From NCBI GenBank assembly GCA_947628375.1, contig CANQZQ010000001.1:1-52163 (forward strand): a stretch of 52,163 nt of DNA. Direction: 5' to 3'. The notes beneath the pieces were generated by a model. That model was not told the DNA's origin and did no database searches. It saw only the letters and a list, made by a program, of their open reading frames with translations. Made by a program: the position numbers and the translations under genes. Within the stretch, counting starts at the first letter, position 1. The number at the start of each line of letters is the position of its first letter. Positions 1 through 52,163 of this stretch are shown piece after piece. The DNA comes from an uncultured Bacilli bacterium (GTDB taxonomy: Bacteria; Bacillota_I; Bacilli_A; RF39; UBA660).

Positions 1-54
1 GATTAGTCTGACCCCCCCGTTATTCATTAAATTTATATAGGTATTATCATTCAT
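1..54 (-). CDS. 5' end of a small ORF running off the left edge (MNDNTYINLMNNGGVRLI...)
   Basis: ATG at 52-54 lies 6 nt downstream of AGGAGGT (61-67, minus strand). Contains a G7 run. Too short to assign a function. Confidence 0.3.
   Translation of the reverse strand, partial: MNDNTYINLMNNGGVRLI
12..18. repeat. C7/G7 homopolymer inside codons 12-14 of the edge ORF
   Basis: Read directly: gacccccccgt. Confidence 0.9.
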
Positions 55-76
55 AAAATAACCTCCTAAAAAGAGA

Positions 77-1381
77 TTAATTTTTCTTAATCTCTTCTTT
101 ATTTTTGTCTATTGTTTTATGGCGTTCAGCCCAAGCAAGAACTTGAGGTGAATGCACTTCATGCCCTACTCCATCGAATTCTAATTCTTTGCAATAGGCT
201 CTCATTTGTTTATAATCCATATTTAATACATCAACATCTTTATTAATATAATCATAAAAAGTTCCAATTCAACTTTCAGTAAAATGACAATCTGAATAAT
301 GTCTAACTTGATATAAAGTATCTTCAATATCAGAATAAATTATTTCATCCCAATATTTTTCTTTTAATCTCTTTCTTAATTTAGCAACATTATTTCTTAA
401 TTCATATCAATCTTCTTCAAGAGGGTCATAATCTGTTGATGCTACCTCTTTTAAGAAATCAAGTAAATTATAAAATGAATAAATTGTCATATTTAAAACT
501 TCATGTTTCATATATTCATCTTCTTCATCTTCAAAATTATATTTTTTATTAAATTCTTCAAAGAAATCTAAAATTGAATTTGATGAAGCCATAGTCCATC
601 CACTTAGATGTTGACCATAATGTGGATCTTGTCTCGATAAAGAATTCTCATTAGGGAATCAATATGCTGTACATTGACAATCTCCGCCTTGTTCATATGG
701 AACTTGAAGCACTTGCCAATCTTGCGCATGCGCAATAGCATAATCCAATTTTCTAATAAATGGATAATCTTCTCCTTGACGAGAATTTTTACCAGTTGGG
801 CAATGTATATCATACTTTTCAATGAAATCTCTATTATAACATCTACTTTGTACCCATATACTATGTCCAGGTATATTGTGTTCATAACCTTTTGTATCAA
901 AAGAATAAACTAAACCATGAACACAAGCAACTGGTTTGATATCCTCTGCGGCAATTCCTTGTGCTTTGTTAGCTTCACTTTCGGGGTCTTGTGAGCCTTC
1001 AATGATACTTAAGTATCTATCACAAGCATTTGCCGCAAGCATATCATCACAGTCTATCAATAAGAAATATTTATAATCTCCAGCTTTTCAGCCAATTTCG
1101 CGGCTTTCGCCTTGATATTTATGTTCTTTATTTTTTATTAATGTTATTTTTATATGTTCACTATCATATAATTTTTTAAATTCATCAGATACATAATAAT
1201 CATAAGGACTTTTATCTTTTTTATCTCTACCTTCTAAATAATCATCTACTAATACTAAATGAATATTAAAAGGATTATTTTTACTAATGTATTGATGAAT
1301 TACTGAAAAAACCATTCGATCTGTAATAACTCGCTCTCCTCACATAGGAGATACAACTGTTATACCTCTTGTTTCTGCCAT
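77..1381 (-). CDS. family-2 (GT-A fold) glycosyltransferase, 434 aa
   Basis: Track fragments 407..592, 659..1060 and 1088..1315 share one frame and are separated only by TGA. ATG 1379-1381 follows GAAGGTGA; TAA at 77-79. N-terminal ITVVSPMWGE and LLIDCDD (DXD) motifs are typical of GT2 enzymes. Confidence 0.7.
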
Positions 1382-1440
1382 AATAAATTCACCTTCACTT
1401 TATGTATATTTTAACATAAAATTTCAAAAAATGCAAATTA

Positions 1441-2130
1441 TTATAGTTTTGTTGTGCTTGATTGAGTACTTCCGTTTTGACTAGTTTTTGTTAGCGCGGT
1501 AGTGCTGCTTAAAGCGCCAACCGCAGTTGATGAAGTTGAATATTGACTTGTTCTAGTTAATGCAGTAGTTGATGATAAAATACTTGTTGTCACAGAACTA
1601 GTTGCATAATATGTTGAGCTCCTAGTTAATGCAGTTGTTGATAATAAATTTCCTTTTGTAGTTGAACTAGCATAATAAGAACTAGTTCTAGTTAAAGCTG
1701 TTGTTGAACTTAAAACTGCATTCGTAGTTGTAGATGAATAATATCTAGTAGTTGATTTTGTTAACGCAGTAGTAGATAATAAGTTTCCTTTTGCTGTACT
1801 TGATGCATAACCAGATTGAGATCGGGTTCCACTGACAGTTGATGTAAAATCTCCATATCATTGACTATAATCTGTTGTCGCATATCTACTTGAAGAACTT
1901 GACGTTGTAGTTAATGCGGTTGTACTATATAAATTTCCAATTCCAGTTGATGAAGCATAATAGCTTCCTGAATTTGTTAATGCAGTAGTTGAACTCATAT
2001 ATCCAACTCCTGCAGAAGTTGTATAATAGCCACTTGATTGTGTCAATGCAGTAGTTGAACTTAAATATCCTACATATATAGAGGTTGCATAGTAATTTGC
2101 GGGTTGAGTTAATGCTGTAGCATTATTCAT
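1441..2130 (-). repeat. nine degenerate tandem units (about 60-66 nt), each encoding ..S(S)TTALT..
   Basis: The DNA core ttaatgcagttgttga recurs. The translation shows TALT nine times at roughly 20-aa spacing. Confidence 0.8.
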
Positions 2131-3102
2131 TCCATTGGCATTGACAGATGAAAAGTATGACGCACTACTATTTGTGTAATAATATGGTTGAGTATAACAC
2201 TCAGTATAATATCGTCCAGTATAATATGTTGCTGTTCCTTGACATCATCTTACATTCGTAACATTAGTAAAAGTACTTGCATTCATATTTATTGTTCCAA
2301 CTTTTGTATACATACTGCTAGAAACAAGTCAATAAGTAGAAGCTATATATCGACTTATAATTTGCTGAGTAGAAAAAGTTTGATAACTATGAGTCTCCAT
2401 TATGCTTGGTAGCGTAACTCCTTTGTTATTAGTTGTCCAGGGTTTTAAAGATGTATAAAATCAATTTTGAGTTCAATCTGAACCAGAATAACTTGTTGCA
2501 TAAGTTCAATAGTTTGCTCTTCATCCGCTATATCCATAAGTATTTATACTAGATAAATAACCTGCATAACCATATGTGCTACCTCTAGAACTATATCCGC
2601 TATAACCGTAGGTGTTTCTTGAACTTAATCTACCGCTATATCCAGTTGTTCTAGTTATCCTAGCTGTTGTACTTCTATAACCGCTACCAGTGGTTTGCCT
2701 AGAGGTAGTTCTTCCGCTATATCCAGTTGTTGATTGAGTGCTTCTTCTACCTGAATATCCGCTAGTACTATATCTCGTTAATCTACCAGTATATCCAGAA
2801 GTACTAGCTCTAGAACGAATTCCACTATAACCGCTTGTACTTCTTCTACTAGCAGCTCCGCTATATCCAGTAGTTACAGTTACAGTAGTTTGATTACCTA
2901 CAACAGTTGTATAACTTTGCATAGGTCTATATGCAACGTCACCTATTTTAACTTTTAATTGAACTCCAGTTGTCGTAGCACTCGTTAAATCAAGAAATGA
3001 CCGGCTCCCCCCCCCGATATTCAAGAAATGAGGTGCCATATGTGTCGTATCACATTCATATTGTCTAGATTCTAAACCATTTTTAACTATTATATAATCC
3101 AT
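1441..3102 (-). CDS. Ser/Thr/Tyr/Gly-rich repeat protein, 553 aa (fibre-associated, function unknown)
   Basis: Fragments 1858..2130 and 2521..3102 are in frame. I checked every in-frame triplet from 1441 to 2520 and found only TGA, no TAA or TAG. GAGGTG lies 5 nt before ATG 3100-3102; TAA at 1441-1443. Confidence 0.75.
2524..2875 (-). repeat. short degenerate (S/T)TSGYSGR-type peptide repeats
   Basis: Track translation: TTGYSGAASRRSTSGYSGIRSRASTSGYTGRLTRYSTSGYSGRRSTQSTTGYSGR... Confidence 0.8.
3007..3015. repeat. C9/G9 homopolymer (codons GGG GGG GGG, residues about 30-32 of the 553-aa protein)
   Basis: Read directly: ggctcccccccccgat. Translated as NIGGGSRS in the track. Confidence 0.9.
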
Positions 3103-3104
3103 AT

Positions 3105-4070
3105 TTACACCTCTGTTGTTGCACTTACACTAGAACCACTTGATGATGTTTTAGTAAGTGCTGTTGTTGAACTTAAATTACCAGGAACACTTGATGTTGT
3201 ACTATATTGACTACTGCGTGTTAATGCTGTTGTACTACTTAATATAGCATTCGTTGTGGTTGATGTCGAATATCTTGTAGTTGATTTAGTTAATGCAGTT
3301 GTTGATACTAATAAACTATTAGTTCTAGTTGATGATGAATACCCTCCTGTTGTTGATGATGTTCTACTACTTGTTAAAGTAAAATTAGAAGAAGGTAAAT
3401 AAGTATAAGAAGTAGTTTGATTATTAATTGTTCATGTAGATAATTCTGATGTAGTAAAAGTGTTTATTATATTGTAACTTCTAGTTTCAGATTCACTAAC
3501 CGATCAATGTAATAGTCCTTGGCCACTTCTAAATGTTGTTATAGTGTTACTACCAGTACGATAAGTTAAAGAAGTAACATGAGTATGAACAGTACTACTA
3601 TATACACTACGTGATGTTTCTGATGTAAATTGAGAATCATAAATATAAATTGCACTAAGAGTAGATGATCGAGATCCTCTATAATAAGTTTGAGTTATTC
3701 TACTTGATTGAGTGCTAGTAGCATATCCACTATATCTAGTCATCGATTTTGTTGTTCTTCCACTATAACCTGTAGTAGATATTGTTGATCTTCTACCACT
3801 ATATCCACTTGTACTACTTCTACTAGTTACGCCTGAATATCCAGTAGTACTAGTTACAGTTACTCTATCATCATAACTAGTTGTTGTACTTTGTAATGGT
3901 CTATAAACAATATCATTAATTTTTATTTTTAATTCTTGATTATTAGTATTTGTTGTTAAATCTAAATAATTTGTTGAATTAACTTGCATATAAGGAGTAT
4001 TATTATAAGTAGACTTACATTGATATTTTTTACTATCTACTATTAAATAATTATTTACACAATCATTCAT
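3105..4070 (-). CDS. paralog of the S/T/Y/G-rich repeat protein, 321 aa
   Basis: Track ORF 3504..4070 continues through TGA codons to TAA 3105-3107 (all in-frame triplets checked). The N-terminal domain (Y.C....LDLT......LK.KI.D..YRP.QS) and the C-terminal STTALT units are shared with 1441..3102. This copy has no poly-G tract. Confidence 0.7.
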
Positions 4071-4081
4071 AGTAATACCTC

Positions 4082-5353
4082 CTATTCTTCAGTTTCAATT
4101 CAAATATTTAAATTACTTGTATCACTCGGATTAACAGGAATTATTCCTTGTTGAGATTTAACTAATGCGGCAACTGCTTTACTAGTAGGCATATTTTCAC
4201 TTGCACTATCAATAGCTACAGTTGTATCTACAGCTTTAGCACATGCAGCTGCTAATTTATATCCATTATAAGTTTTATTTGATAAAGCTTGTGTACTATC
4301 TAAATCTACTAAATTTAATGCAGTAAAATCAGCAGTAATAACAGCTTCCGCATTTGTTACGTGACCTTCGCCATTAGTAGTAATTTTATAAATCCCGCTA
4401 TCAAAAGCTTGACCTTTATTAGTAACAGCATGTTTGTATGCGGCAGCACCTCGGTCTCCACGGTAAGCATTCTCGGCACCTTCGCCTAAAACCAAACCTC
4501 CGCCAGTTAATGCTACATATTTTTCTCCATCCCAACGATATTCAATGTTTGTAGATCTATCTACATAGATAACATTTCTATCTCCTTCAGATGGAAATAA
4601 ATCAAAGCTATCATAACCTTGAACGTTAGCTAATCCACCAGGTATTCTTTCTAATGGAATTAAACCTTGTTCATCTAATTCAGCGACTCCGCTATTTGCG
4701 CCAACTAAGTCCGCATTTAATTTTTTACCAAGAGCCGCATTAACAGCACCAGATGTAATTAGCGCATTACTTGATGCAGTTCCGCCTTCAGTAGTATCAA
4801 TAGCTCTTGTAGTTACAGCGCTTGCGCCATTACCAATTAGTACTTGTCCAGCTGTTAATGTTGCAACACCAGTTCCACCATTACCAACACCAATAACGCC
4901 ATTTATATCTTCAGGTTCTACATTAGCTTTATAAGCCATTGCATCTAAACCAGTAATTTTTACTTCTGCTTCATTTCCATTTGTATTTACTTTAATAGTA
5001 CCATTATTAGTGCCTGCGGCAACCGCTCTAACGCCCGCATTTCTAAAGTCAGTGCCGACTAAAGCGACACCCGCGCTTGCAGTATATTTAGTATCATTAT
5101 CTGGAATAGTGATAACAGTATCTCCAGAGTCGTCAGAAGGACTTATTGTAACTTTATGTCCATCTTCGACATCTTGAGTAAAAGTATAAGAAACATTAGA
5201 TCCATCCATCTCAATTCTTTGGCTATCAGAAATATCTAAATATAACTTTTTAGTGTCTGTAGTAAATATAATTTGACCTTCTGCAATAGCTAATTGACCA
5301 AGTTGTTCTCCTAATATTTTATAAAAACTTACAGGCTTTTTAGTTTCATCCAT
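4082..5353 (-). CDS. tail fibre protein, 423 aa
   Basis: Track ORF 4100..5353 reads through one TGA to TAG 4082-4084. Gly/Ala/Thr-rich central region (GVGNGGTGVATLTAGQVLIGNGASAVTT) is typical of Gram-positive phage fibres. Confidence 0.7.
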
Positions 5354-5357
5354 AAGT

Positions 5358-5789
5358 CTATTCCTCCTCTTCTTCTACTTCTCAAGTAATTTCTTCATTA
5401 TCTTGTAAACTGCTTATTCCACTTAAACTTAAAATACCTTCAATCGCTTTTTTACCTTGCATTACTATACTTGAACAAACTACTCCAAGTACACCAACAC
5501 TTGATAGAGTATTTAATAAGTCATTAGATAATAATACTACTCCAAAAGTATCAGTTATTATTTCATTTATATAAGGTAACATTGTAAAAGCAACACTAAG
5601 TGCAGCCGCACTAATATAAAATACTATTACTTTTAAAATACCTTTAAACATTTTTTTAATATTAAAATTTTCTTTGTTACTTCATACATTAACTAATGTA
5701 CCAGTTACAATATTAACTAAGGCTAAAATTCCTAAAATAATACCTAACCAGCCCATAATAGACAATGTTGATAAAATTGCTTCTTTCAT
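5358..5789 (-). CDS. holin, 143 aa
   Basis: ATG 5787-5789 follows GGAGG. The ORF runs through TGA at 5682 and 5382 to TAG 5358-5360. It has several hydrophobic helices and an acidic tail (WEVEEEEE), and lies directly downstream of the endolysin. Confidence 0.7.
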
Positions 5790-5800
5790 ATTTTAACCTC

Positions 5801-6811
5801 CTATTGTTTTTCAAGAGCCTCTGCTTTATAAAAACCAGTTGTCCCAGTATTATTTCCAACTTGATAAGGGTACGCTCTACCATTCCAAATTTTTAATATT
5901 TGTCTCTTCCAACCAATACCATAAGCAGTATTAGATGTACCATAACTTGATCCATTACCAGTTCCAATAATTTTAACCTTATCTCCTACTTTAAGCGCGG
6001 GAGCCGGTGCTGGTTGCACTGGTTGAGGTTCTGGTTCTACTGGAGTAGGTTCAGGAATCGGTTGAACGGGTTCCGCATTTCCGCTTTCAATAGCTTGTTG
6101 TACATCATCTGGTAAATAAATAAATGCTCTAAATGTATAAGCGCTAGCAAGTCCTCATCTACCATTTGTATTTTTTCTAGTTTGATTTCAAAAAGCTTTT
6201 GACCCATATCCGCTTTCAGAAGTGTAAATAGATCCATCATCGTTTACTTTTTCAACTATCCAAACGTGGCCGGCGCCATCTTTTCCGCTAAGTGTAGCAC
6301 CTTTTTGCGCACATCCAATAGCTCCAACTCTAGGTTCGCTACCCGTTTGAAGGCCGGCCGCAACTGCTTTCTCAATAAAATTTTCAGCATTGCAGCATAA
6401 TTTTGTATAAGTACATTTAGAAGTTCCACGAATATTATTAATAATTTCGTTAAATCTTCCACTAGCATACCCAACGCAGTTAGCTAATACATTACAATCT
6501 TTATCTTGCGGATATCCTTTAACACAAGTATTTCATCCACCTGCGCCAGTTGTAATAAAGTTCTTATTTCCGCTTACAGGTTTACTTGTTCTAGGGTAAA
6601 ATTTGCTATTATTTACAATTGCACTACTGATTTTTACAATTTGATCTTCGCCATCTTCATTTAATTCTTCTATTGTATCTGTATTAAATGTGTATTGAAT
6701 GTCATCATTGTTAATATCAGGTCTTAAAAATGCTTTAGCAATCATTGCTTGCATTTCCGCAGGCGCTTGTTCTATACGAGAAATAATCTCTTCAATCGTT
6801 AATTGTTCCAT
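5801..6811 (-). CDS. endolysin: N-terminal domain of unknown function, CHAP-type peptidase/amidase, Pro-rich linker, SH3b-like wall-binding domain (336 aa)
   Basis: Fragments 5801..6019 and 6533..6811 share a frame. My translation of the gap gives NCVGYASGRFNEI (Cys nucleophile) and GHVWIVEKV (His motif), then PIPEPTPVEPEPQPVQPAPAP. Confidence 0.85.
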
Positions 6812-6826
6812 AATATACCCGCCTTT

Positions 6827-7093
6827 CTATTCTACTGATTTCCAATAGATATTATTTCATTTTGAAATATCATCTTCTGTAATGTCTTTTACATATTGAG
6901 GTACTGTTGGATCATCTTCTGTAGTAAGGGCAGTATCTTGTAGTTCTTGTATATCTGATTTTACATTTGTCATTGTGTTTTCTAGCGTTTCTCCATCTTC
7001 CATATCAATATTAACAGCATTTGCGCCAATATCTATATAATCTGAAAAATCGCCATCAGGATTTTTTGCTCTCAATTTTTTAACCTTACTCAT
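6827..7093 (-). CDS. hypothetical structural protein, 88 aa
   Basis: Track ORF 6857..7093 extends through TGA to TAG 6827-6829. Confidence 0.55.
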
Positions 7094-7107
7094 GATATAA
7101 ATCCTCC

Positions 7108-7156
7108 TTTACAGAAAAATTAAAGAAGAGAATAATTTATTTTAAACATTCTCTTC
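7108..7156 (-). terminator. intrinsic terminator
   Basis: 9-bp stem gaagagaat/attctcttc (7125-7156), followed on the minus strand by a T-rich run. Confidence 0.5.
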
Positions 7157-7200
7157 TAAATTTTTATATCTATTCATATTTTAATTTATCTAAAAAATAA

Positions 7201-7377
7201 TTATTCTGCTTCGTCCTTAACTTCTTCTTTTGTTTCTTGCTTTTGTTCTTCTTTTAATAAATTATTATATAAATCACTAACTTCTCTAAATACATCTTTT
7301 AAAACATAAAATTTTGCTTCAAAAGGTAAATTTGCAGAATTTATTAATCCTGCTAATTGTTTTCTTAATTCTTCCAT
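7201..7377 (-). CDS. hypothetical small protein, 58 aa (MEELRKQLAGLINSANLPFE...)
   Basis: Not in the track (below its size cutoff). ATG 7375-7377, TAA 7201-7203, frame checked. Confidence 0.5.
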   Translation of the reverse strand: MEELRKQLAGLINSANLPFEAKFYVLKDVFREVSDLYNNLLKEEQKQETKEEVKDEAE

Positions 7378-7394
7378 ATCCTTTTATCTCCTTA

Positions 7395-41238: not shown

Positions 41239-41246
41239 AAAAAGTA

Positions 41247-43353: not shown

Positions 43354-43382
43354 TTGACATTAAATAATAGCTATGGTATAAT
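43354..43382 (+). promoter_or_regulatory. early promoter
   Basis: TTGACA-17-TATAAT-N4-ATGTAA. Confidence 0.7.
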
Positions 43383-43410
43383 GTTAATGTAATAAAGAAA
43401 GGGAAAGAAA

Positions 43411-43650
43411 ATGAAAATATACGTGTTATGGGATGACCGCAACTGCGGTGATAGTGAAATAATACTAGTTACCGCCGATTTAGAATTAATCAAAGCTAAA
43501 GTCAATGAAGTTTTTGATAGTGATGATGACAACCAACTACTATTCATAGAAGTATGGCAAGATAATGAAAAAGTCAGCAATGTAGAATTTGACGTTTACT
43601 GCGATATTAAAAATCATAAATACATAATTAAAAATTTTAAAGAAATTTAA
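43411..43650 (+). CDS. small early protein, 79 aa (family C)
   Basis: Track ORF. Confidence 0.6.
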   Translation: MKIYVLWDDRNCGDSEIILVTADLELIKAKVNEVFDSDDDNQLLFIEVWQDNEKVSNVEFDVYCDIKNHKYIIKNFKEI

Positions 43651-43659
43651 AAAAAGTGC

Positions 43660-43688
43660 TTGACAAGAAAAAGCAAAAGTGTTATAAT
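43660..43688 (+). promoter_or_regulatory. early promoter
   Basis: TTGACA-17-TATAAT-N4-ATGTAA. Confidence 0.7.
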
Positions 43689-43747
43689 AATAATGTAATA
43701 AAGGTTAAGCCAACCTTTATAAATAAAAGAAAGAGAGAGTGATAAAA

Positions 43748-44116
43748 ATGGCTGAAACAAAAAAAATGACAAAGAGAATGGTATTCGAGAGAGTAATCCA
43801 AGTAATCGAAACAACTGATGTTGAAGATAAGGACTTATTAATCGAAAAATTACATAATGAAATTGAATTACTAAACAAAAAAAATAATTCTTCTACCCCA
43901 ACAAAAGTACAAATCGAAAACCAAAGCATTAAAGAAAACATTATCAAAGAATTAAAAGCATTTGGTCGCCCAGCTACTGCTACTGAATTAATGGCAACTG
44001 AAACATTAAAAGGTTACTCAAACCAAAAATTAACTGCATTATTAACTCAATTAAATGATAGTGGTGCTATTAGCCGTGTTGTTGACAAGAAAAAAGCTTA
44101 TTTCTCTGCTAACTAA
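43748..44116 (+). CDS. early protein with a C-terminal winged-helix-like domain, 122 aa (family A)
   Basis: Track ORF 43739.. trimmed to the ATG. Paralogs at 44766..45164 and 50400..50750. C-terminus reads KLTALLTQLNDSGAISRVVDKKKAYFS. Confidence 0.6.
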   Translation: MAETKKMTKRMVFERVIQVIETTDVEDKDLLIEKLHNEIELLNKKNNSSTPTKVQIENQSIKENIIKELKAFGRPATATELMATETLKGYSNQKLTALLTQLNDSGAISRVVDKKKAYFSAN

Positions 44117-44139
44117 TGTTAAGGGCATTGTCCCTTAAC

Positions 44140-44428
44140 ATAAAGACTTAAAATTTTTTACCTCCTCTCTTTAAGTCTTTATGTTAGGGTGATAATGGTT
44201 GCAACCTCCTAAGGAGCTTTATGTTTTTCATCTAACCGAAAAATGAGGGTATTCGCTCACTTGAGAAGTGAAAGTAGATTTACTCCTGCTTAAAAGAGTA
44301 AAAGTCGCCACGAACTTAAAAATGGAGGCAATGTTCCATTGAATACTTGGAAAGCCTAGAGGGGTGCGGAAATTGGTCTGCACAAGTATTCAAAAATAAG
44401 GCAAACTGCAGAACGCCTTATTTTTTTG
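44140..44428 (+). ncRNA. structured non-coding trailer/candidate RNA ending in an intrinsic terminator
   Basis: No ORF in any frame, even with TGA read as Trp. Contains a series of hairpins, including a 12-bp stem at 44140-44182. Ends with an ataaggc/gccttat stem followed by T7 at 44396-44428. Confidence 0.3.
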
Positions 44429-44608
44429 TGTTCGACGGCTCGCGGACTAACGCCTCGAGCCGTTTGAGCGAACATTTGTATGCCTACGTATTTTTGTTCG
44501 CAAAAGTTGCTCTAATACATACTGATCCAGATCCTGAAAGGATCAAAGGGGCGCCGCCGCGAACATTTGTACGTATAAAAATTTTTTTAAAAAATTTTAA
44601 ATTTTCTA

Positions 44609-44637
44609 TTGACTTTATAAACCTATTATGTTATAAT
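44609..44637 (+). promoter_or_regulatory. orphan early promoter (no ORF before the next promoter)
   Basis: TTGACT-17-TATAAT-N4-ATGTAA. An RBS-like AGAAAGGAAAAG follows, but no start codon. Confidence 0.6.
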
Positions 44638-44706
44638 AATAATGTAATAAGAAAGGAAAAGCAAAAATACAAAATAAAAAAATTCAAAAAAAAATAAAAA
44701 AAATGC

Positions 44707-44735
44707 TTGACAACTTATTACAAAAGTGTTATAAT
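44707..44735 (+). promoter_or_regulatory. early promoter
   Basis: TTGACA-17-TATAAT-N4-ATGTAA. Confidence 0.7.
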
Positions 44736-44765
44736 ATAAATGTAAAAAGAAAGGAAATGATGAAA

Positions 44766-45164
44766 ATGGAAAAATTAACACAAAAACAAATGTTTGAAGT
44801 AATGAAAGGACACTTTGCAGACTTAGGCAACCAAGTTATAGGCTTTGCAACAGTAAAAGATAGCAATATCGAAGTTACTGCTGAAAATGTTGTAGACTTT
44901 ATTAACGGTCGTATTGAAGTATTAAGCAATAAGACTTCTCGCAAAGCACCTACTAAAACTCAAGTTGAAAATGAAAATATTAAAGCTTTAATCGTTGACG
45001 CTTTATCAAAAGCAGACAAACCAATGTCTATCAATGACTTAATGGCAATTGAAGGCTTAGGCTTCTCAAACCAAAAGTTATCAGCTTTACTTACTCAACT
45101 TGTTGATAATAAAGTAGTTGTACGTGTTATTGATAAGAAAAAAGTTTTCTTCTCAATAGCTTAA
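44766..45164 (+). CDS. winged-helix-like early protein, 132 aa (family A)
   Basis: Track ORF 44703.. trimmed to the ATG after GGAAATGATGAAA. Confidence 0.6.
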   Translation: MEKLTQKQMFEVMKGHFADLGNQVIGFATVKDSNIEVTAENVVDFINGRIEVLSNKTSRKAPTKTQVENENIKALIVDALSKADKPMSINDLMAIEGLGFSNQKLSALLTQLVDNKVVVRVIDKKKVFFSIA

Positions 45165-45258
45165 TCAAGTCAAGTCTACTTGACTTGACTTGACACCTAA
45201 GCAATGTAAATTAGATGTCAAGTGAAGTCAAGAAGATTGTGCTAAATGCTATCTTGAC
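45165..45258. repeat. cluster of GTCAAG/CTTGAC hexamers, including an 11-bp-arm palindrome
   Basis: tcaagtcaagt-ct-acttgacttga at 45165-45188. Further copies at 45189, 45217, 45227 and 45253. Confidence 0.7.
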
Positions 45259-45368
45259 CGCGGAAAAGGACATATTCCAAGTGCGTTAACTTTAAATAAA
45301 CCCGCGGCGGTGGGAATGTAGCACCATTCCCGCCACAAAAATTTTTTAAAATTAATGTTAATTTACTA

Positions 45369-45397
45369 TTGACATTTTATTATAGATATGATATACT
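45369..45397 (+). promoter_or_regulatory. early promoter
   Basis: TTGACA-17-TATACT. Confidence 0.6.
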
Positions 45398-45427
45398 ATT
45401 ATTGTAATAGGAAAGGGAAGTGAGAAA

Positions 45428-45859
45428 ATGAAAAACTATGTTGAAAATGGCAAAGTTATTGAAATCACACTTGATAATGACAAAAAAGTTAAAGTTATGA
45501 CTGAATGGGTAAACAAGACCATGCAAGCACTTGATACCGATAAAGAAGATGTATTGCTTATGTGGCTTGAGGACAACGGCTACCTAGTAAATGAAGAACA
45601 AGAAGAACTTGATAACCAAGCTAAAGGGGTTGTAAAAGTCGTTGCTAAGGCTGAAAAACCTAAAGTTAAGACACAAAAAGAAAGAGTGCAAAAAGAAAAC
45701 CCAACTAAAGAATTAATTATACAAACAATAGCAAAAGCACTTGAAAACCTTGATATTTCTAACTTAAACATTGAAAATAAAGCAAAACTTGTTACTTTTT
45801 CAATGAATAATGAAGATTTTAAAGTAGATTTAGTGCAAAAACGCAAACCTAAGGCATAA
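45428..45859 (+). CDS. hypothetical early protein, 143 aa (family B)
   Basis: Track ORF. Paralog of 49559..50008 on the opposite strand. Confidence 0.6.
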   Translation: MKNYVENGKVIEITLDNDKKVKVMTEWVNKTMQALDTDKEDVLLMWLEDNGYLVNEEQEELDNQAKGVVKVVAKAEKPKVKTQKERVQKENPTKELIIQTIAKALENLDISNLNIENKAKLVTFSMNNEDFKVDLVQKRKPKA

Positions 45860-45894
45860 AAAGTGCCTTAGGTAAGCAAAAAAGAAAGGAAATT

Positions 45895-46206
45895 ATGAAA
45901 AATTATAGAAAATTACTTACAAATTTATATCTTTTTAATGATATTACATATAAAATTGTTAAAAATAGAATAATAATTAAAACTAATAGAAAAAAATTCG
46001 ACAGCCCAGATTTTACTTATTACCTTGTTTTACATATCAATAGATTAACTCATAACATAACTAAAGTAGGTGCTTTAATTATGGATGATTTAGACTTTGA
46101 AATGTACGGCAAAAAAGTTGTTTCAAGTAGCACTCCCCATATTTTTACTGATGCGGACTTTGTAGAAACAAAAGGACACCCAGGCATAGAGTGGGGCAGT
46201 AGATAG
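45895..46206 (+). CDS. hypothetical early protein, 103 aa
   Basis: Track ORF after AGAAAGGAAA. Confidence 0.5.
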   Translation: MKNYRKLLTNLYLFNDITYKIVKNRIIIKTNRKKFDSPDFTYYLVLHINRLTHNITKVGALIMDDLDFEMYGKKVVSSSTPHIFTDADFVETKGHPGIEWGSR

Positions 46207-46228
46207 CGGAAACCCGCTATTTTTTTTG
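46203..46228. terminator. bidirectional intrinsic terminator
   Basis: atagcgg-aaac-ccgctat stem followed by T8. Confidence 0.6.
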
Positions 46229-46297
46229 TTAAGCTGATGTAAAGTTTACATTTACTTGACGCCTGGCGGCTGGTGCTCGACTGTGCGGCCGCCGCTT
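46203..46297 (-). ncRNA. candidate small GC-rich RNA made from its own consensus promoter
   Basis: The minus-strand promoter at 46303-46331 points into an ORF-less stretch of about 95 nt. This holds a GGCGGC...GCCGCC hairpin and ends at the bidirectional terminator. Confidence 0.3.
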
Positions 46298-46302
46298 TCC
46301 GC

Positions 46303-46331
46303 ATTATAACATACTTTTAACAATTTGTCAA
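46303..46331 (-). promoter_or_regulatory. antisense-oriented consensus promoter
   Basis: TTGACA-17-TATAAT on the minus strand. Confidence 0.55.
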
Positions 46332-46376
46332 GCAAAAAATGAAAAAAATATTTTTAAAATTTTTTCACAAAACCTA

Positions 46377-46405
46377 TTGACATTATTTAGCTACTATGCT
46401 ATAAT
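46377..46405 (+). promoter_or_regulatory. early promoter
   Basis: TTGACA-17-TATAAT-N4-ATGTAA. Confidence 0.7.
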
Positions 46406-46437
46406 AATAATGTAATAAAGGAAAGGGAAGATAAAAA

Positions 46438-46659
46438 ATGAAAGAAATGTATGTATTTTTAGACCCAGCATTAGGCGGGGACGCAGTTTATATTTTTGAT
46501 AACAAACAAGAGGCAGACAAGTTTATAAAATGGTATAAACAAGACCTTATTAATGAGGGTATGGAAGATATCGTTGATGATATTGAAGATATCAACTATT
46601 GGATTAAACCAATAATGACCTATGAACAAGCTAAAAAAGATTATGTGGAGGGCGATTAA
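46438..46659 (+). CDS. small early protein, 73 aa (possibly family C)
   Basis: Track ORF. Confidence 0.55.
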   Translation: MKEMYVFLDPALGGDAVYIFDNKQEADKFIKWYKQDLINEGMEDIVDDIEDINYWIKPIMTYEQAKKDYVEGD

Positions 46660-46660
46660 A

Positions 46661-46897
46661 ATGAGTAATGAATTTATTAAAGATTTTGAAAAAATTGGAA
46701 AATTCTTGTTAAAAGTTGAACTTATTGCAGACTGGAACATAGAAGACTTAAGCGATACGCATAAATGGGCAAAACTAGTTTTAACATTAAACACTAATGA
46801 ACCTCAACATTTGGAAATTACTTTTGACAAAGAGTATGGCTTCATTACAAATATTGAATATTCAAATGTTTTAGATTTATTAGACACAGCAGAATAA
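46661..46897 (+). CDS. hypothetical early protein, 78 aa
   Basis: Track ORF 46622.. trimmed to the ATG after GTGGAGGG. Confidence 0.55.
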   Translation: MSNEFIKDFEKIGKFLLKVELIADWNIEDLSDTHKWAKLVLTLNTNEPQHLEITFDKEYGFITNIEYSNVLDLLDTAE

Positions 46898-46898
46898 G

Positions 46899-46920
46899 GC
46901 GGAAATCCGCTTTTTATTTT
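46899..46920 (+). terminator. intrinsic terminator ending the plus-strand early arm
   Basis: gcgga-aa-tccgc stem followed by a T run. Confidence 0.55.
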
Positions 46921-46929
46921 GCTAATTTA

Positions 46930-46950
46930 CTTTACATGTAAATTTACATG
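46930..46950. promoter_or_regulatory. CTTTACATGTAAAT palindrome plus an overlapping TTTACATG copy (operator candidate)
   Basis: Read directly. More TTTACAT half-sites at 47039 and 47050, and ATGTAAAgTTTACAT at 46237-46251. Confidence 0.5.
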
Positions 46951-47246
46951 TCAATCGCCGGCGCGACCATGGTCAAACTGCGCCGAATTTTCCCAAAGTC
47001 AACACCTTTCGCAAATTTTCAACCAAAAATCGTTAAATTTTACATTTTCTTTACATCCCTAAACTAAAGGGGGCTGGGGCGAACATACGTACGCCTTTAG
47101 GTTCAGGCGGCAACCGCCAACTTCCGTATATGGCCAAACTGACTGCGTAATTTGCATATGGACCGCCATATGCGATTTTTTTATGCGATTATTGAGCGGC
47201 AGCACGCGATTAATGTTTCCTAAAAGCTAGATTTCCGCATATGCAA

Positions 47247-47275
47247 TTGACAAATAAAAAAATTTTTGATACAAT
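47247..47275 (+). promoter_or_regulatory. promoter facing an AT-rich ORF-less region
   Basis: TTGACA-17-TACAAT, followed immediately by the hairpin aacgaaatttttaattcgtt. Confidence 0.5.
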
Positions 47276-47442
47276 ATAAAAAAACGAAATTTTTAATTCG
47301 TTTAGCGCAATCAATAGCCAGACATAAAGAGCGGGAAGCGGCAACTCCGCATCTTAATTGATTATATTAATATAATATGATATAATATAATGGGAAAGAA
47401 TAATAATAATATATATAATAATAATACACTTCCATTTTAATA

Positions 47443-47471
47443 ATTATAACAAATTTTAAATAATTTGTCAA
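47443..47471 (-). promoter_or_regulatory. promoter convergent with 47247..47275
   Basis: TTGACA-17-TATAAT on the minus strand. Confidence 0.5.
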
Positions 47472-47681
47472 GTAAGCAAAATAAGCCAAGAAAATTTTAA
47501 GCAAACTACAACAAACGATAATTTATCCATAAAAATAATAAAGTTAACAAGAGATAAGTAAATAAGCCTCACTGAGCATATAAAAATAATGAGAGGGAAA
47601 CGATAAGGAGTTAAATAAAAAGAACGATAGGACGGGAACCGTGCCACCGCTATCGCTCAATTTTACCAATCTTATCTAATT

Positions 47682-48038
47682 TTATTCTAAATTATTATAT
47701 TCTTCTGCCATTCGCATACTTTCTTCAAAAGCCTCATTCTCATAGTCTTCTTTTCTATTTACAATAGTCAAACTGCTTTTCAATCTGCCAATATCATTTA
47801 TAGTAAAGCTAATTTTATATAATACTGCCATTATATCTTTTCTATCAACAGCAGCTTCAGTATATAATACAACTAAATTACATAATTTATATAATATATT
47901 AACATCTATACTTTCTTCACCTTTATTCAATAGCCTAATATTATCAATACCAAAATAATCCTTTTTATTCAATAGACAATCAAATATAGCATTCTTAATA
48001 AACCAATTGCGGAAACCAAATGCTTTCCTTATATCCAT
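47682..48038 (-). CDS. hypothetical protein, 118 aa
   Basis: Track ORF 47682..48080 trimmed to the ATG after GGAAAGGAGG. A terminator hairpin lies at 47623-47660. Confidence 0.55.
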   Translation of the reverse strand: MDIRKAFGFRNWFIKNAIFDCLLNKKDYFGIDNIRLLNKGEESIDVNILYKLCNLVVLYTEAAVDRKDIMAVLYKISFTINDIGRLKSSLTIVNRKEDYENEAFEESMRMAEEYNNLE

Positions 48039-48158
48039 GCAAAAATACCTCCTTTCCCTAGCGCCACGATGCGACCCCACGTAATGTGGGGGCGCTTATA
48101 CATACAATTTCGAGCGAAGCGAGAAATTGTGTGTATCTTTATATTTATTATTTAGGTT

Positions 48159-48389
48159 TGATACATTGATACAATTTATACATTTGTATCAAACTCATTG
48201 GAACATTTGCTTATCATTGATACAAAGTATTAAAGCAAACCCTTAAAAATCAAACAATCGAGGTTTATTTTCTTGTGTATCATTTGTATCAATTTTGTTC
48301 ACATTGTGTATATCATTGTATAAATCATTTGTATCTTTGTATACATCCATTGATACATTTGTATCAATTGTATCATTCTCATTGATACA
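48159..48389. repeat. iteron cluster: at least 12 copies of TGATACA/TGTATCA (candidate replication origin)
   Basis: Copies at 48159, 48167, 48185, 48218, 48276, 48285, 48329, 48351, 48360, 48369 and 48383, among others. The cluster spans the 3' end of 48243..48794 and the downstream spacer. Confidence 0.6.
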
Positions 48390-48794
48390 ATGTTCATACC
48401 ATAATTTTTCTTTATTTTTCCACACATCTCTTCTAGCAATTCTTTGAACTCCACCACCACATTTATCAATTACTTGTTGTTCAGTTGGTTTAATTCCTTG
48501 TTTGCGAAAATCAAAATATACCCCCAAAATTTGCTCATCACTAATCTTCGGAGTAACCCCGCCCTTTTTGCCAATCTCTGCCGCCTTTTCTTTATATACA
48601 GCCTGCCCCTCAATCATTCTTTGCGGATTAGCTAACAATGCCCTAATAATAGCGTCCCCATTAACTTCTTGCGGTAATTCTCTATATACGCCCCAATAGC
48701 ATAAAGCATCTATAACTTTACATCTAGTTTCATAAGGCAATTCTTTTAAATCACTATAAAAAGTAGGAACAAAAGTAAAACTATTTTCTTTCAT
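48243..48794 (-). CDS. replisome-organiser / origin-binding-like protein, 183 aa
   Basis: Track ORF trimmed to the ATG after AAGGGGG. The iterons lie inside its own 3' end, as in lambda O and SPP1 G38P. The N-terminus FTFVPTFYSDLKELPYETRCKVIDALCYWGV resembles replisome-organiser N-terminal domains. Confidence 0.45.
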   Translation of the reverse strand: MKENSFTFVPTFYSDLKELPYETRCKVIDALCYWGVYRELPQEVNGDAIIRALLANPQRMIEGQAVYKEKAAEIGKKGGVTPKISDEQILGVYFDFRKQGIKPTEQQVIDKCGGGVQRIARRDVWKNKEKLWYEHCINENDTIDTNVSMDVYKDTNDLYNDIHNVNKIDTNDTQENKPRLFDF

Positions 48795-48987
48795 TGCGGC
48801 AACCCCCTTTCGCTTTCTCAAAGTCAGCTTCAAGGGTATCATCCATCTGAAATATTCAAGTTGTGTATTGAGGTTCTTCAGGATTTGGCATAGTTGTAAC
48901 AACTAAATGTCCCTTTTTTATTAAAAACATTGCAATTTTTAAACTATAAACTATTTTATATTCGTTATTATTAATATTCGTCTTCAT
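48781..48987 (-). CDS. hypothetical small protein, 68 aa
   Basis: ATG 48985-48987 lies 8 nt after TAGGAGG. One in-frame TGA; ends in TAG at 48781. Missed by the track. Confidence 0.5.
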
Positions 48988-49001
48988 ATATCGCAATCCT
49001 C

Positions 49002-49244
49002 CTATTTATTTAGTTCTTGCACATATTCTTTAGCATGAGGATTTTTATCTAAAAACTCTTTTAACTCTTCTATTTGTTTATCTTTACTTTTATCTATTTC
49101 AATATATACAGCATTCTTGCCTCTGCCTTGCTTAACTATTTCTACGCCATAATTTTTTAATATACTCTCTTTAATGCGCGGAAATCCATGCAAAACACTA
49201 TTTTCTTTATAATTATACTTTTCGCATAACTCTTGTAATGTCAT
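49002..49244 (-). CDS. small DNA-binding-like protein, 80 aa
   Basis: Track ORF after AAGGAG. The HTH-like segment is an inference. Confidence 0.5.
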   Translation of the reverse strand: MTLQELCEKYNYKENSVLHGFPRIKESILKNYGVEIVKQGRGKNAVYIEIDKSKDKQIEELKEFLDKNPHAKEYVQELNK

Positions 49245-49345
49245 AGCAGTCTAACTCCTTTCATATATATTTGAATTTCTGATATTCCAAAATATCCATT
49301 TTTGACCAAAATAATGCGGAAACACAGGTTAGAAGCAACATTAAT

Positions 49346-49465
49346 CTAGTCCATAGATTCCTTAACCGGCATCTCCGCATAGTATTCATTTATTTTATTA
49401 TTTGGTAATTCATAAATACCAAAATGTATTTTTAATCAAATTCAAACTATTAATACCCATTTCAT
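49346..49465 (-). CDS. small hydrophobic peptide, 39 aa (MKWVLIVWIWLKIHFG...)
   Basis: ATG after GGGAGG. Two in-frame TGA codons. Its 3' part shares 16 nt with gene 49559..50008 and may be a relic of it. Confidence 0.35.
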
Positions 49466-49558
49466 AATAAAACCTCCCTCGCGAAAAATCGTATTTTTCG
49501 ACTTTTATTTATACTTTTCGTTTCTTTCAAAAAGACAATATTTTAGTAAACCACATCA

Positions 49559-50008
49559 TTAGTTTTTCGGTTTCCTTTTTTGAATAAGGTCAATTTTAAA
49601 ATTATCTTCACCAATAGCAAAAGTAATTATCTTACCCTTATTTTCAATAACCAAATCACTAACACCCTCAAGTGCAGCAACCGCTTCTGCAATTGCTGAG
49701 ATGAGCATTTCTTTCGTAGGGTTCTCCTTCACCGTTCTTCTAACCGGCATCTCCGCCTTTTTCCTATCGCCTTTTGTTCTATGTAATGAAGCTAATACTT
49801 TATTGTCTTTTGCTTTTGCATTTAATTCTTCTTGGTCTTCATTAATAATGTATTCTTCATCTTCTAACCAAGTTAATACAGCTTCTTCCTCATCAATATC
49901 AAGATTGTCCATCATTCTATCAATGAATGCACTTTCCACTTTTGCAACTCTTCCATCATCAAGAGTCACAGTAATTATTCTTCCATCTCTTGTAAAATCT
50001 TTTAACAT
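49559..50008 (-). CDS. hypothetical early protein, 149 aa (family B)
   Basis: Track ORF trimmed to the ATG after GGGAAGGTG. Paralog of 45428..45859. Confidence 0.6.
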   Translation of the reverse strand: MLKDFTRDGRIITVTLDDGRVAKVESAFIDRMMDNLDIDEEEAVLTWLEDEEYIINEDQEELNAKAKDNKVLASLHRTKGDRKKAEMPVRRTVKENPTKEMLISAIAEAVAALEGVSDLVIENKGKIITFAIGEDNFKIDLIQKRKPKN

Positions 50009-50049
50009 TTTTAACACCTTCCCTTTCATTATATTTTTATTATATATAT

Positions 50050-50078
50050 ATTATATCATAAAAAACAAATTTTGTCAA
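50050..50078 (-). promoter_or_regulatory. right-arm early promoter
   Basis: TTGACA-17-TATAAT with TG extension. Confidence 0.65.
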
Positions 50079-50399
50079 GTATAATCGTAATGCGGCAACC
50101 CTTGGTTCGATGCTTGCACGACCTGCATCTCCGCAATCCAAAAAAAAGAAAGTGTTTATTCACTTCTGGCAAGTAGGACTATCTTTCAAAGCCCTTAGCT
50201 GTTTCAAGCTCAGCTATAAGCTATTTAGTTTATGCCATCCCATTCCACTAACAAGGAACCTCTATTCTAGTAAGAGTATGAACTAATGATTTCTAGTAAA
50301 TCAATAACTCAGGATAGATATATCTTAAGTTCACCATCCTTATATATAAGAACTAATTAACTTTTAATTCTTATATATAAAGAGGAGAACCTCTTTATT

Positions 50400-50750
50400 T
50401 TACTCAGCTATTGTGAAGTATACACTTCTTTTATCTTGAGTACGTACAACTCTGTTAGCATTAACTAATTTCTTAACTAATGCCGCAACTTTTTGAGCTG
50501 AAGTAATTTTATCACTTTTAACTGCATTGTAGATATCAGTAACAGTTATTGGCTTTCCAGCTTCTGCTATTGCATTGTAGACATCTTCTACTAAAACTTC
50601 ATTTTCTTTTTGAGTTTTAGTCATGCCAGTTCTTTTCTTAGAAACTAATTCGATTTCCTTATTTAATTTTTCAATTATTAAGTCTTTGTCCTCAACATCA
50701 GTTTCGCTTACAATGTCAATTAATCTTTCAAACATTTCTCTCTTAGTCAT
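50400..50750 (-). CDS. winged-helix-like early protein, 116 aa (family A)
   Basis: Track ORF trimmed to the ATG after GGAAATGATAAAA. Confidence 0.6.
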   Translation of the reverse strand: MTKREMFERLIDIVSETDVEDKDLIIEKLNKEIELVSKKRTGMTKTQKENEVLVEDVYNAIAEAGKPITVTDIYNAVKSDKITSAQKVAALVKKLVNANRVVRTQDKRSVYFTIAE

Positions 50751-50979
50751 TTTTATCATTTCCTTTCTTTCTCTCTTTCCTAAGATTAATATATATTTAA
50801 ACACTTTCGTGTTATAAAGATTTTTTGAAATCCTTTCGCTTATAAGAAACTTGCGGAAACCGCGAGATTTAAAGAAGAAACAGCCTCGTCACTAAAGATT
50901 TTTCTCTTATGGCTTTGACTCAAGGTCTACCAGCTTTAGTAGATTTCTTAAACTATACTTTCTTTCTTTTTCTATATAT

Positions 50980-51008
50980 ATTATATAATATTTTTTAAAT
51001 ATTATCAA
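50980..51008 (-). promoter_or_regulatory. right-arm promoter with a leader of about 220 nt
   Basis: TTGATA-17-TATAAT. The next start codon is at 50750. Confidence 0.6.
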
Positions 51009-51019
51009 TTTATTTTGAA

Positions 51020-51087
51020 AGGGAAGGGATTAATATTATTTATTAATCCATGAGTGTTTATATTGTAATAACTCTTTTTTATTACAT
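51020..51087 (-). ncRNA. candidate RNA of about 70 nt
   Basis: The promoter at 51092-51120 is followed by two hairpins (gtaata/tattac and ggattaata/tattaatcc), no ORF, and then the next promoter. Confidence 0.3.
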
Positions 51088-51091
51088 ATAT

Positions 51092-51120
51092 ATTATATAA
51101 TAATTTTTAATTATTATCAA
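51092..51120 (-). promoter_or_regulatory. right-arm promoter
   Basis: TTGATA-17-TATAAT-N4-ATGTAA. Confidence 0.6.
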
Positions 51121-51287
51121 TATTCATTCTGCGAACCCAATCTCGTCTCCACGGTTCGCCGCCTCTGTCCACGCCCTTCGATAAAATCAAGGCACTTACC
51201 AACGAGGGTTTCCTGATATAAATGGTTCACCTTATATATCGGCAGGTACGCCTATTTATAACGCGGTGGTCGCTCCCCGCAAATCTA

Positions 51288-51569
51288 TTAATTAAACTTT
51301 ACTTCTTGAGTTTCATAATAAACTCTATATTCAGCATATGTATCTCGAATATCGAAGTAAGCATAATTACCGTTTAATACTTCATAACTAACGTCAAAGT
51401 TGTCATCGAAAGAATCTGCATCATAATCCTCTTTTAAAGAGTCTATATTCTCTTGATATAACTCTTTTAGTCTTGCAACAGCCTCATCAAAAGTTTTAAA
51501 AACTTTATCTTCACTCATATAACAAGTATAAGAGTCAACAGTTTCAATTCCACCATGAATTATATACAT
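51288..51569 (-). CDS. small acidic early protein, 93 aa (possibly family C)
   Basis: Track ORF trimmed to the ATG after GGAAATGATAATT. Confidence 0.55.
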   Translation of the reverse strand: MYIIHGGIETVDSYTCYMSEDKVFKTFDEAVARLKELYQENIDSLKEDYDADSFDDNFDVSYEVLNGNYAYFDIRDTYAEYRVYYETQEVKFN

Positions 51570-51599
51570 AATTATCATTTCCTTTCTTTTTACATATAT

Positions 51600-51628
51600 A
51601 TTATATAATAATTTTTATATAATATCAA
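51600..51628 (-). promoter_or_regulatory. right-arm promoter
   Basis: TTGATA-17-TATAAT-N4-ATGTAA. Confidence 0.65.
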
Positions 51629-51639
51629 ATAAGATTTTT

Positions 51640-51879
51640 TAGCTCTTCTGCGGACTTCCACCGCAGAACGTCTAACGAAGGTTCAGATGGTTGAATAACT
51701 CTCCCCGATTACCCTTCTGTTAAGTATATGGCATAAGGTCCGCCCTTAATAACTCCATATACTATTGTTAGACCATTATTTTCTTTAGAGTGTCTTTATC
51801 GCTACTATGTAGCGTTGAGAATTCCACCAAGAGCTAATAGGTTATCAAGATATTTTATATCTTTCCTTTTTTATTACAT
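51640..51879 (-). ncRNA. candidate non-coding RNA of about 235 nt
   Basis: The promoter at 51884-51912 is followed by an RBS-like AAGGAAAG but no start codon. Internal hairpins (gctac-ata-gtagc; tatatgg...ccatata). Ends at the ttctgcgg/ccgcagaa hairpin at 51646-51668. Confidence 0.3.
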
Positions 51880-51883
51880 ATAT

Positions 51884-51912
51884 ATTATAACAAATTTTTT
51901 ATTTGTTATCAA
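51884..51912 (-). promoter_or_regulatory. right-arm promoter
   Basis: TTGATA-17-TATAAT-N4-ATGTAA. Confidence 0.6.
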
Positions 51913-52115
51913 TATTATGCTTATAACTAAAGATAACACGCGGGCGGTGGCATTCCATCCTCTAAAGTCAACCACTTACTAGCTTTTACCTTCACTCAGC
52001 TTTCAAGATAGGATTACTTTTTTATCATAGACTGAGCTATTGTTATCTTTATTTATAAACATAATATTGCGGAAGCAGAGGTCTGATGCTACATGACCTA
52101 ACATTTCCGCTTCCA

Positions 52116-52163
52116 AGTCAAGACTTACGGCAGTATTAGCGACCCCTGCCGCAAGTCTTGACT
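52116..52163. repeat. 18-bp-arm inverted repeat ending exactly at the window edge
   Basis: agtcaagacttacggcag, a 12-nt loop, then ctgccgcaagtcttgact (one mismatch). Confidence 0.7.

Follow-up and report, generated by a model that had tools for sequence, protein, structure and literature searches.

Uneven use of TGA as a sense codon in a 52-kb genome fragment of a large siphovirus from the gut or rumen

Stop-codon recoding of the kind considered here has been known in phages since 2014 and was characterised in detail in 2021-2023, and it is a documented habit of the large gut and rumen phage clade to which the present DNA belongs; the pattern itself has been published for gut and rumen phages (bioRxiv 10.1101/2021.08.26.457843; PMC10607447). 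The stretch in question, hereafter the window, is contig CANQZQ010000001.1 of assembly GCA_947628375.1, taken whole at 52,163 bp with a GC content of 30.7%. It represents about one third of the genome of a siphovirus of some 130-165 kb; the long contigs of its relatives by the large terminase gene, terL, measure that much. Searches with exact 40-mers in IMG/VR, GTDB genomes and JGI metagenomes gave no match, and identical proteins sought by look-up led to one 630-bp ENA contig alone. TGA is read as a sense codon in this phage, and we discuss which amino acid it encodes, which genes use it and whether the code belongs to the phage or to its host.

Borges et al. (bioRxiv 10.1101/2021.08.26.457843; Nat Microbiol 2022) describe 'Agate' phages that are about 127-154 kb long, come from cattle, pig and tortoise gut and use codes 11, 4 and 15 within one clade; TGA occurs in their structural and lysis genes and is preferred in a tail protein that lies upstream of their lysis cassette. 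In the same account suppressor tRNAs are placed in curated genome maps, with TGA suppressors detected in 35% of TGA-recoded genomes, and the recoded codon is reported in about 90% of genes of phages matched to code-25 hosts. The window resembles this group in several respects: contigs of its relatives measure 130-165 kb and are of rumen or gut origin, codes 4, 11 and 15 are all present in its terL clade, and TGA outnumbers TGG in the tail protein gene upstream of its lysis cassette (Table 1). Standard-code relatives, too, rarely stop at TGA, which ends 1 of 51 long open reading frames (ORFs) in the closest of them from IMG/VR and GenBank, and such rarity is a proposed precondition for recoding. 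In contrast, the avoidance of TGA in capsid and other virion proteins and the array of consensus early promoters described below are not mentioned for Agate phages in the available text. On these shared features, rather than on a tree, we would assign the window to the Agate group.

A second described system, phAss-1 of the proposed Phassvirus (OQ749652; Babkin et al. 2023, PMC10607447), belongs to the same broad family, with a terL 45% identical to that of the window, a genome of about 136 kb and late genes likewise broken up by the recoded stop. Its tape measure protein has about 3150 amino acids (aa), and the region holding that ORF is weakly homologous (21-29% identity) to the tape measure gene of the window. 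The suppressor tRNAs of phAss-1 lie far from terL; its GenBank record places two tRNA-Sup-CTA genes beside nrdD, about 38 kb away. It differs, however, in reading TAG as Gln (code 15), in its GC of 39% and in its human gut origin, whereas in the window the recoded codon is TGA, for Trp. The best cultured terL matches are Geobacillus virus E3, the Enterococcus phages H1 and VRE9_4 and the Alicyclobacillus phage KKP_3916, all large siphoviruses of Gram-positive Bacillota; unlike the window they use the standard code and, at 42-45% terL identity (the range that also includes phAss-1), they are far more distant than many uncultured contigs of rumen relatives at 66-84%. The cultured relatives of the clade infect Gram-positive Bacillota (Geobacillus virus E3 and large Enterococcus, Bacillus and Lactococcus phages).

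TGA- and TAG-recoded Crassvirales and Lak phages show the same combination of a phage-specific code, a standard-code host and recoded late genes (Ivanova 2014; Devoto 2019; Peters 2022, PMC9523058; Cook 2024, PMC11210395). These lineages are unrelated to the window phage. Their hosts are Bacteroidota. Phages of Mycoplasma and Spiroplasma and phages of code-25 hosts also use TGA as a sense codon, as here, but such native-code phages mirror the code of the host in nearly all genes, whereas about half of the genes of the window are free of TGA and TGG is common.

Reading of TGA in the late module

When TAA and TAG are taken as the sole stops, the stop-to-stop ORF map fills the late module (Table 1) with 29 abutting minus-strand genes and zero strand switches. 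Coding density in this module was 0.965 under code 4 and 0.76 under code 11; for the whole window one simple gene caller gave 0.73 with code 11, 0.88 with code 4 (or 25) and 0.78 with code 15. In 1..38300 it called 70 genes and changed strand 10 times under code 11, and called 28 genes without a change under code 4. The late genes hold 87 in-frame TGA and 57 TGG codons. Each of the 87 interruptions is a TGA, with TAA and TAG absent and the frame unbroken throughout, and from interruptions of one kind in a constant frame it follows that chance, pseudogenes and assembly error are ruled out. Counted with TGA as Trp, tryptophan codons make up 1.18% of late-gene codons, and 0.47% without it.

A preliminary description of this DNA had claimed that its genes fall apart at TGA, and we find the same: the tape measure, tail protein, terL, portal, lysin, holin and glycosyltransferase genes all rejoin when TGA is read through. 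Its fragment counts for the first two, nine and six, were too low, since 15 and 24 TGA codons give 16 and 25 pieces. It also observed that TGA never closes a gene, but this must hold as soon as TGA is removed from the list of stops, and it therefore has no weight as evidence.

For the identity of the amino acid, every gene was translated with TGA as X and aligned by tblastn to about 140 related loci from IMG/VR, metagenome-assembled genomes (MAGs) of GTDB and GenBank. Pooling the residues at TGA positions of the window over the first 82 loci gave W 851, Y 193, TGA 186, F 43 and G 28. Among columns with at least 5 homologues, W was in the majority in 17 of 25 TGA columns, to be compared with 19 of 23 TGG columns of the window and about 0-1% of columns for every other type of residue. 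Per-column log-likelihoods favoured W by far (-41), followed by Y (-89), F (-93), C (-105) and G (-113). The same tendency is seen gene by gene: W dominates both TGA columns of the portal protein and all four of the gene upstream of terL, the three TGAs of the lysin align with W in 4 of 4 homologues, as does the holin TGA at residue 136, and in standard-code homologues the five of the glycosyltransferase-like gene stand opposite W, W/Y or F. In terL the three columns read, in relatives, W 59, TGA 12 and Y 6; Y 34, W 24, TGA 16 and F 4; and W 66 and TGA 12, the last being the YESE-TGA-SG position already pointed out in the preliminary description as a normally aromatic one.

Two internal controls, both proposed there as well, agree with this. 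The G-x-[IV]-G-G-W module of the tail protein is present in six copies, where the final codon is TGG in one (8286..8288) and TGA in five (8790, 8646, 8511, 8085 and 7929), and Tandem Repeats Finder (TRF) detects a 135-nucleotide (nt) tandem repeat within the same segment. In the two paralogous small genes of the right-hand part TGA stands opposite TGG, and relatives have TGA twice and W once in that column. The proposal that TGA encodes tryptophan is, on this column and repeat evidence, strongly supported.

Two other readings of the codon were considered, and both are rejected on column statistics as far as glycine, selenocysteine and pseudogenes are concerned. Under code 25 TGA would mean glycine and the host would belong to Gracilibacteria or Absconditabacteria, which have low GC and a cell wall; the ORF structure would be identical to that under code 4. 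Glycine, however, is the poorest of the residues compared, W is the majority in 0 of 262 Gly columns against 17 of 25 TGA columns, and Gly leads in one column and one homologue set (g29 position 229), where Ser leads in the other set, so we regard this reading as highly improbable. That the TGAs are true stops, left by pseudogenes or split genes, by sequencing or assembly errors, or passed as selenocysteine or by occasional programmed read-through, has its sole support in the broken-up genes seen under code 11. Against it stand the constant frame of the 87 interruptions and the finding that the same positions hold TGA or W across dozens of independent assemblies; cysteine fits the TGA columns poorly, and the Rfam scan of the window found no credible RNA family (2 chance-level matches, E about 0.5), hence no SECIS-type element (selenocysteine insertion sequence). 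Its probability is negligible.

Phage code and host code

TGA was initially described as being read in this way throughout the phage. It is indeed a sense codon in many genes, but only 29 of 57 credible genes hold it, 21 of 29 in the late module and 8 of 28 elsewhere, and TGA makes up 0.60 of TGA plus TGG codons in the late module vs 0.30 in the rest (Fisher p = 0.002). Recoding is thus gene-specific, partial and biased to late genes. Its share of Trp codons drops to about 0-5% in two genes, those of the capsid protein and early exonuclease, and the A-ending member accounts for 0.90-0.97 of AAA/AAG, GAA/GAG, CAA/CAG, TTA/TTG and AGA/AGG pairs in the late genes. This under-use argues for a code of the phage, since with the native code of an AT-rich host one would expect TGA to approach a similar 90-97%.

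This gene-specific use recurs across 26 recoded relatives. In TGA-recoded relatives the abundant virion proteins (capsid, g15, g21, g23 and g24; loci L003-L078 and L218) are nearly free of TGA, and in their terminase and regulator genes TGA exceeds half of the Trp codons (Table 1).

The right-hand 14 kb of the window looks like an early region. It carries 18 sigma-A-type promoters of the form given in Table 1, where 0.03 would be expected, most with an extended -10 TG and most lying 25-40 nt upstream of small genes, and 1..38200 holds one of the same type. The genes directly behind these promoters contain 0 TGA and 7 TGG. Four of the 18 sit within a 51-nt repeated intergenic element (50962, 51074, 51582 and 51866). 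The nucleotidyltransferase gene located between this region and the late module has residues past its TGA at codon 130 which are conserved in relatives, and that TGA must therefore be read through. Two genes, this one and 41760..42068 (of doubtful reality), end in TGA-TAA, which could be a tandem stop terminating both before and after a code switch. They hint, without proof, that early genes might use TGA as a genuine stop.

The relatives of the phage speak to the origin of the code more directly. At least 498 IMG/VR contigs carry a related terL, and by record title contigs of the clade come from rumen, ruminant-gut and rabbit MAGs, many of them rumen or ruminant-gut. Three classes were found, TGA-recoded, TAG-recoded and standard, with in-frame codons of the second type never beyond a stray one. 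The 80 IMG/VR relatives nearest to the window comprise 43 with recoded TGA, 32 with the standard code and 5 with recoded TAG. Recoding of TGA is found in each of the 20 relatives with terL identity of at least 78.7%; standard-code members first appear at about 78%, and standard-code sister phages stand at 74-78%. The three codes are interleaved in one terL clade. To our knowledge no bacterial host reads TAG as Gln, and this together with the interleaving indicates that the code goes with the phage lineage, a host matched to each code being implausible.

From our analysis we propose, with a probability of roughly 0.8, a phage-lineage-specific, gene-selective late code switch in a standard-code host. 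In a host with the standard code, the early genes, which follow host-type promoters, would be expressed as written. A decoder of UGA provided by the phage, in all likelihood a tRNA with a UCA anticodon whose gene lies in the 80-110 kb not covered by the window, would then permit translation of the TGA-containing late and lytic genes; the tRNA, the code of the host and the timing of the switch are what we infer here. In the window TGA is common in packaging, sigma-like regulator, tape measure, tail and lysis genes and rare or absent in the promoter-linked early genes and the most abundant virion proteins.

A number of observations weigh against this proposal. The sample of promoter-linked early genes is small, and TGA is not confined to late genes, as the nucleotidyltransferase and a few small right-hand genes need read-through. 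Binning of clade contigs, often with Bacilli, Erysipelotrichaceae, Anaeroplasmataceae or Clostridia MAGs, is noisy for phage contigs and weak as evidence of the host, with labels that include 'Mollicutes' and 'Tenericutes'. As in the preliminary description, no suppressor tRNA and no release-factor gene was found in the window: neither ARAGORN nor a permissive Rfam scan found any tRNA in it, and no release factor or tryptophanyl-tRNA synthetase was found among the proteins scanned, every product of at least 300 aa included. Among relatives, ARAGORN found no tRNA within 10 kb of terL, lysin or glycosyltransferase in about 130 loci, and no tRNA(UCA) was found linked to the close TGA-recoded relatives. 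Other low-GC TGA-recoded rumen phages do have a tRNA array with a tRNA(UCA), next to a gene for ATP-dependent DNA ligase. Among cultured phages Geobacillus virus E3 is again the nearest to them, but this is all they share with the window phage, and not its terL subclade. A generic pattern scan of IMG/VR for the anticodon loop and T-arm gave at least 120 matches, the suppressors among those listed belonging to other phages. Bridging through the DNA ligase adjacent to tRNA(UCA), with a single protein and then with an alignment, gave no contig of this terL clade; bridging through NrdD of phAss-1 gave phAss-like genomes only, and an alignment-based terL scan did not recover the tRNA(UCA)-carrying contigs.

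The preliminary description had left two alternatives, a walled host that reads TGA as Trp or recoding machinery outside the window. The latter is the likelier, since the window is 52 kb of about 130-165 kb and the tRNA arrays that could be located lie far from terL, those of TAG-recoded cousins at about 56-60 kb; the former, as framed there, is not supported by the interleaved codes and the uneven TGA. A tRNA-like element whose anticodon-type loop reads CUUCAAA (UCA) is also conserved in the arrays of TAG-recoded relatives (L095 2046-2130; L121 about 175-260, minus strand; L177). The element has a good acceptor stem and T-arm and an aberrant D region, is not called by ARAGORN and has a weak folding z-score of -1.9.

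A standard-code host might instead decode UGA with no suppressor tRNA of the usual kind from the phage, by an atypical tRNA, by near-cognate tRNA-Trp(CCA) or through interference with release factor 2. The 35% detection rate of TGA suppressors in Borges et al. is in line with this, as are the tRNA-like element with a UCA loop that ARAGORN missed in related phages and the lack of tRNAs near terL or lysin in any relative. Yet an absence from about one third of a genome says little, an ordinary tRNA(UCA) is present in several TGA-recoded rumen phages from this broad family, and phAss-1 has ordinary amber suppressors; we consider such decoding unlikely. Another possibility is that the host itself reads UGA as Trp by a native code 4, walled or not, and that the phage mirrors it. 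The window without a decoder, its very low GC, the TGAs in some non-late genes and the clade contigs binned with Mollicutes, Tenericutes or Anaeroplasmatales MAGs can all be cited for it. Contigs binned with Mollicutes, Anaeroplasmatales and Acholeplasmatales are, however, TAG-recoded or without recoding in a short stretch, the Tenericutes-binned contig uses the standard code, and none of them is TGA-recoded. The standard-code sisters and TAG-recoded cousins within the clade speak against a native code too, as does the use of TGA, for a native code 4 would bring TGA into nearly all genes and far above TGG, whereas the window has it in about half of its genes, against some 90% in the code-25-host phages of Borges et al., at shares far below those of comparable A-ending codons and almost never in the capsid protein and early exonuclease. 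Lysins of the clade, moreover, target peptidoglycan, those of relatives carrying LysM, M23, or Amidase_2 with CW_7. The known code-4 Mollicutes have no peptidoglycan. A native code 4 of the host is accordingly improbable, and the particular version in which the host is an uncultured, walled, low-GC rumen lineage of Bacilli decoding UGA as Trp is at best equally so; if true, it would mean that TGA use in the phage reflects an undescribed code change of the host.

The same comparison removes a difficulty raised initially, where a code-4 phage was taken to imply a code-4 host and its peptidoglycan hydrolase therefore appeared as a paradox. Interleaved codes and uneven TGA point the other way, and once the code of the phage is separated from that of the host, a walled Gram-positive host is what would be expected. 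Indirect signs of a host with the standard code are the lysins directed at peptidoglycan, the binning of clade contigs with Bacilli and Clostridia MAGs and the sigma-A-type consensus promoters.

Other features of the window and of related loci

The coordinates of the features are collected in Table 1.

Table 1. Features of the window with their use of TGA and TGG; counts for relatives are pooled per gene over 26 recoded relatives
Feature	Position	Strand	TGA/TGG in window	TGA/TGG in relatives	Match or remark
Late module (packaging, head, tail, lysis, tail-fibre/glycosyltransferase)	77..38213	-			contiguous solely with TGA as sense
Glycosyltransferase-like accessory gene	77..1381	-	5 TGA		weak Glycos_transf_2 match
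Holin	5358..5789	-	2 TGA		Pfam Phage_holin_4_1
Endolysin, CHAP domain	5801..6811	-	3 TGA		Pfam CHAP 5.5e-12; PDB PcsB CHAP
Tail protein, 1761 aa	7395..12680	-	24/12		just upstream of lysis cassette
Six-copy G-x-[IV]-G-G-(W/TGA) repeat	7929..8792	-			internal control for TGA meaning
Tape measure protein, 2760 aa	12771..21053	-	15/12		PHROG tail length tape measure families; Pfam PhageMin_Tail
Probable major capsid protein	29045..30070	-	0/4	3/55	phrog_4088; weak Phage_capsid_4 match
Portal protein	32083..33660	-	2 TGA		phrog_2739 portal, 4.9e-79
Large terminase, terL	34196..35953	-	3 TGA	70/62	PHROG terL families
Gene upstream of terL	35946..37127	-	4 TGA	91/52	phrog_3314; usual small-terminase position
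Sigma-factor-labelled protein	37134..38213	-	7 TGA	66/53	phrog_5767 'sigma factor', 4e-44; head of late module
Nucleotidyltransferase gene	38530..39399	+	TGA at codon 130		phrog_388 / RlaP; ends TGA-TAA; divergent from late module
Early-type region, 18 near-perfect promoters	39671..51912	.			TTGA[CT]A-N17-TATAAT
Paralogous small genes	42976..43170, 43411..43650	+			TGA vs TGG at one column
g15 (virion structural protein)				0/15	
g23				0/27	
g24				10/69	
Early exonuclease				0/24	

The tail protein is the most heavily recoded gene of the window, and a PHROG search gave no match for it. For the lysis cassette, a CHAP and SH3b hydrolase and a holin had been suggested; Pfam and PDB comparisons bear out the CHAP domain, and Pfam the holin, but Pfam, PHROGs and a PDB sequence search detected no SH3b in the C-terminus of the lysin. 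The PHROG label is what suggests a putative sigma-factor function for the first gene of the late module. Between terL and portal lies a gene for an HNH-type homing endonuclease, without TGA (33737..34105, minus strand).

The glycosyltransferase-like gene has at least 276 homologues, some in unrelated prophage-like contexts, and a copy 75-78% identical adjoins the lysis cassette of an unrelated prophage-like element with a contractile tail (L287-L290, ENA ERZ148647xx contigs). Because it recurs beside an unrelated lysis cassette, it seems to be a mobile accessory gene. Next to it in the window, at 1441..4070 on the minus strand, two adjoining Ser/Thr/Tyr-rich proteins (553 and 321 aa) contain numerous repeats of the peptides 'SSTTALT[KR]' and 'GYSG'; no family match was found for them, and they are probably fibre or decoration proteins. 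In a standard-code relative (L084 1-7772, IMGVR_UViG_3300031760_000003) a reverse transcriptase gene with a YMDDG motif at 6600-7772, downstream of a tRNA cluster and a GC-richer non-coding stretch, may belong to a diversity-generating retroelement near the fibre and glycosyltransferase genes.

Within the early region two small paralogous gene families, g45/g46/g58 and g48/g56 (43748..45164, 45428..45859 and 49559..50750), occupy both strands and are also found at the edges of loci of relatives. At the extreme end of the contig, 52116..52163, a GC-rich 18-nt inverted repeat (AGTCAAGACTTACGGCAG / CTGCCGCAAGTCTTGACT) stands in AT-rich surroundings.

Consequences for the phage clade

In practice, this contig needs translation table 4, without which the tape measure, tail, terminase, portal and lysis genes are split into dozens of fragments. 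The data reveal no new genetic code and no new kind of host, and the code of such a phage cannot serve to infer that of its host. Of the new details, two are the most useful: the most abundant virion proteins avoid TGA, and consensus early promoters stand densely before TGA-free genes. Avoidance of the codon in the capsid and other abundant virion proteins is what would be expected if suppression is costly or inefficient, and, together with the promoter-dense early region, it could help to explain how the code switch works. With a code that flips between relatives at about 75-80% terL identity, the window is a well-resolved case for the late-code-switch model.

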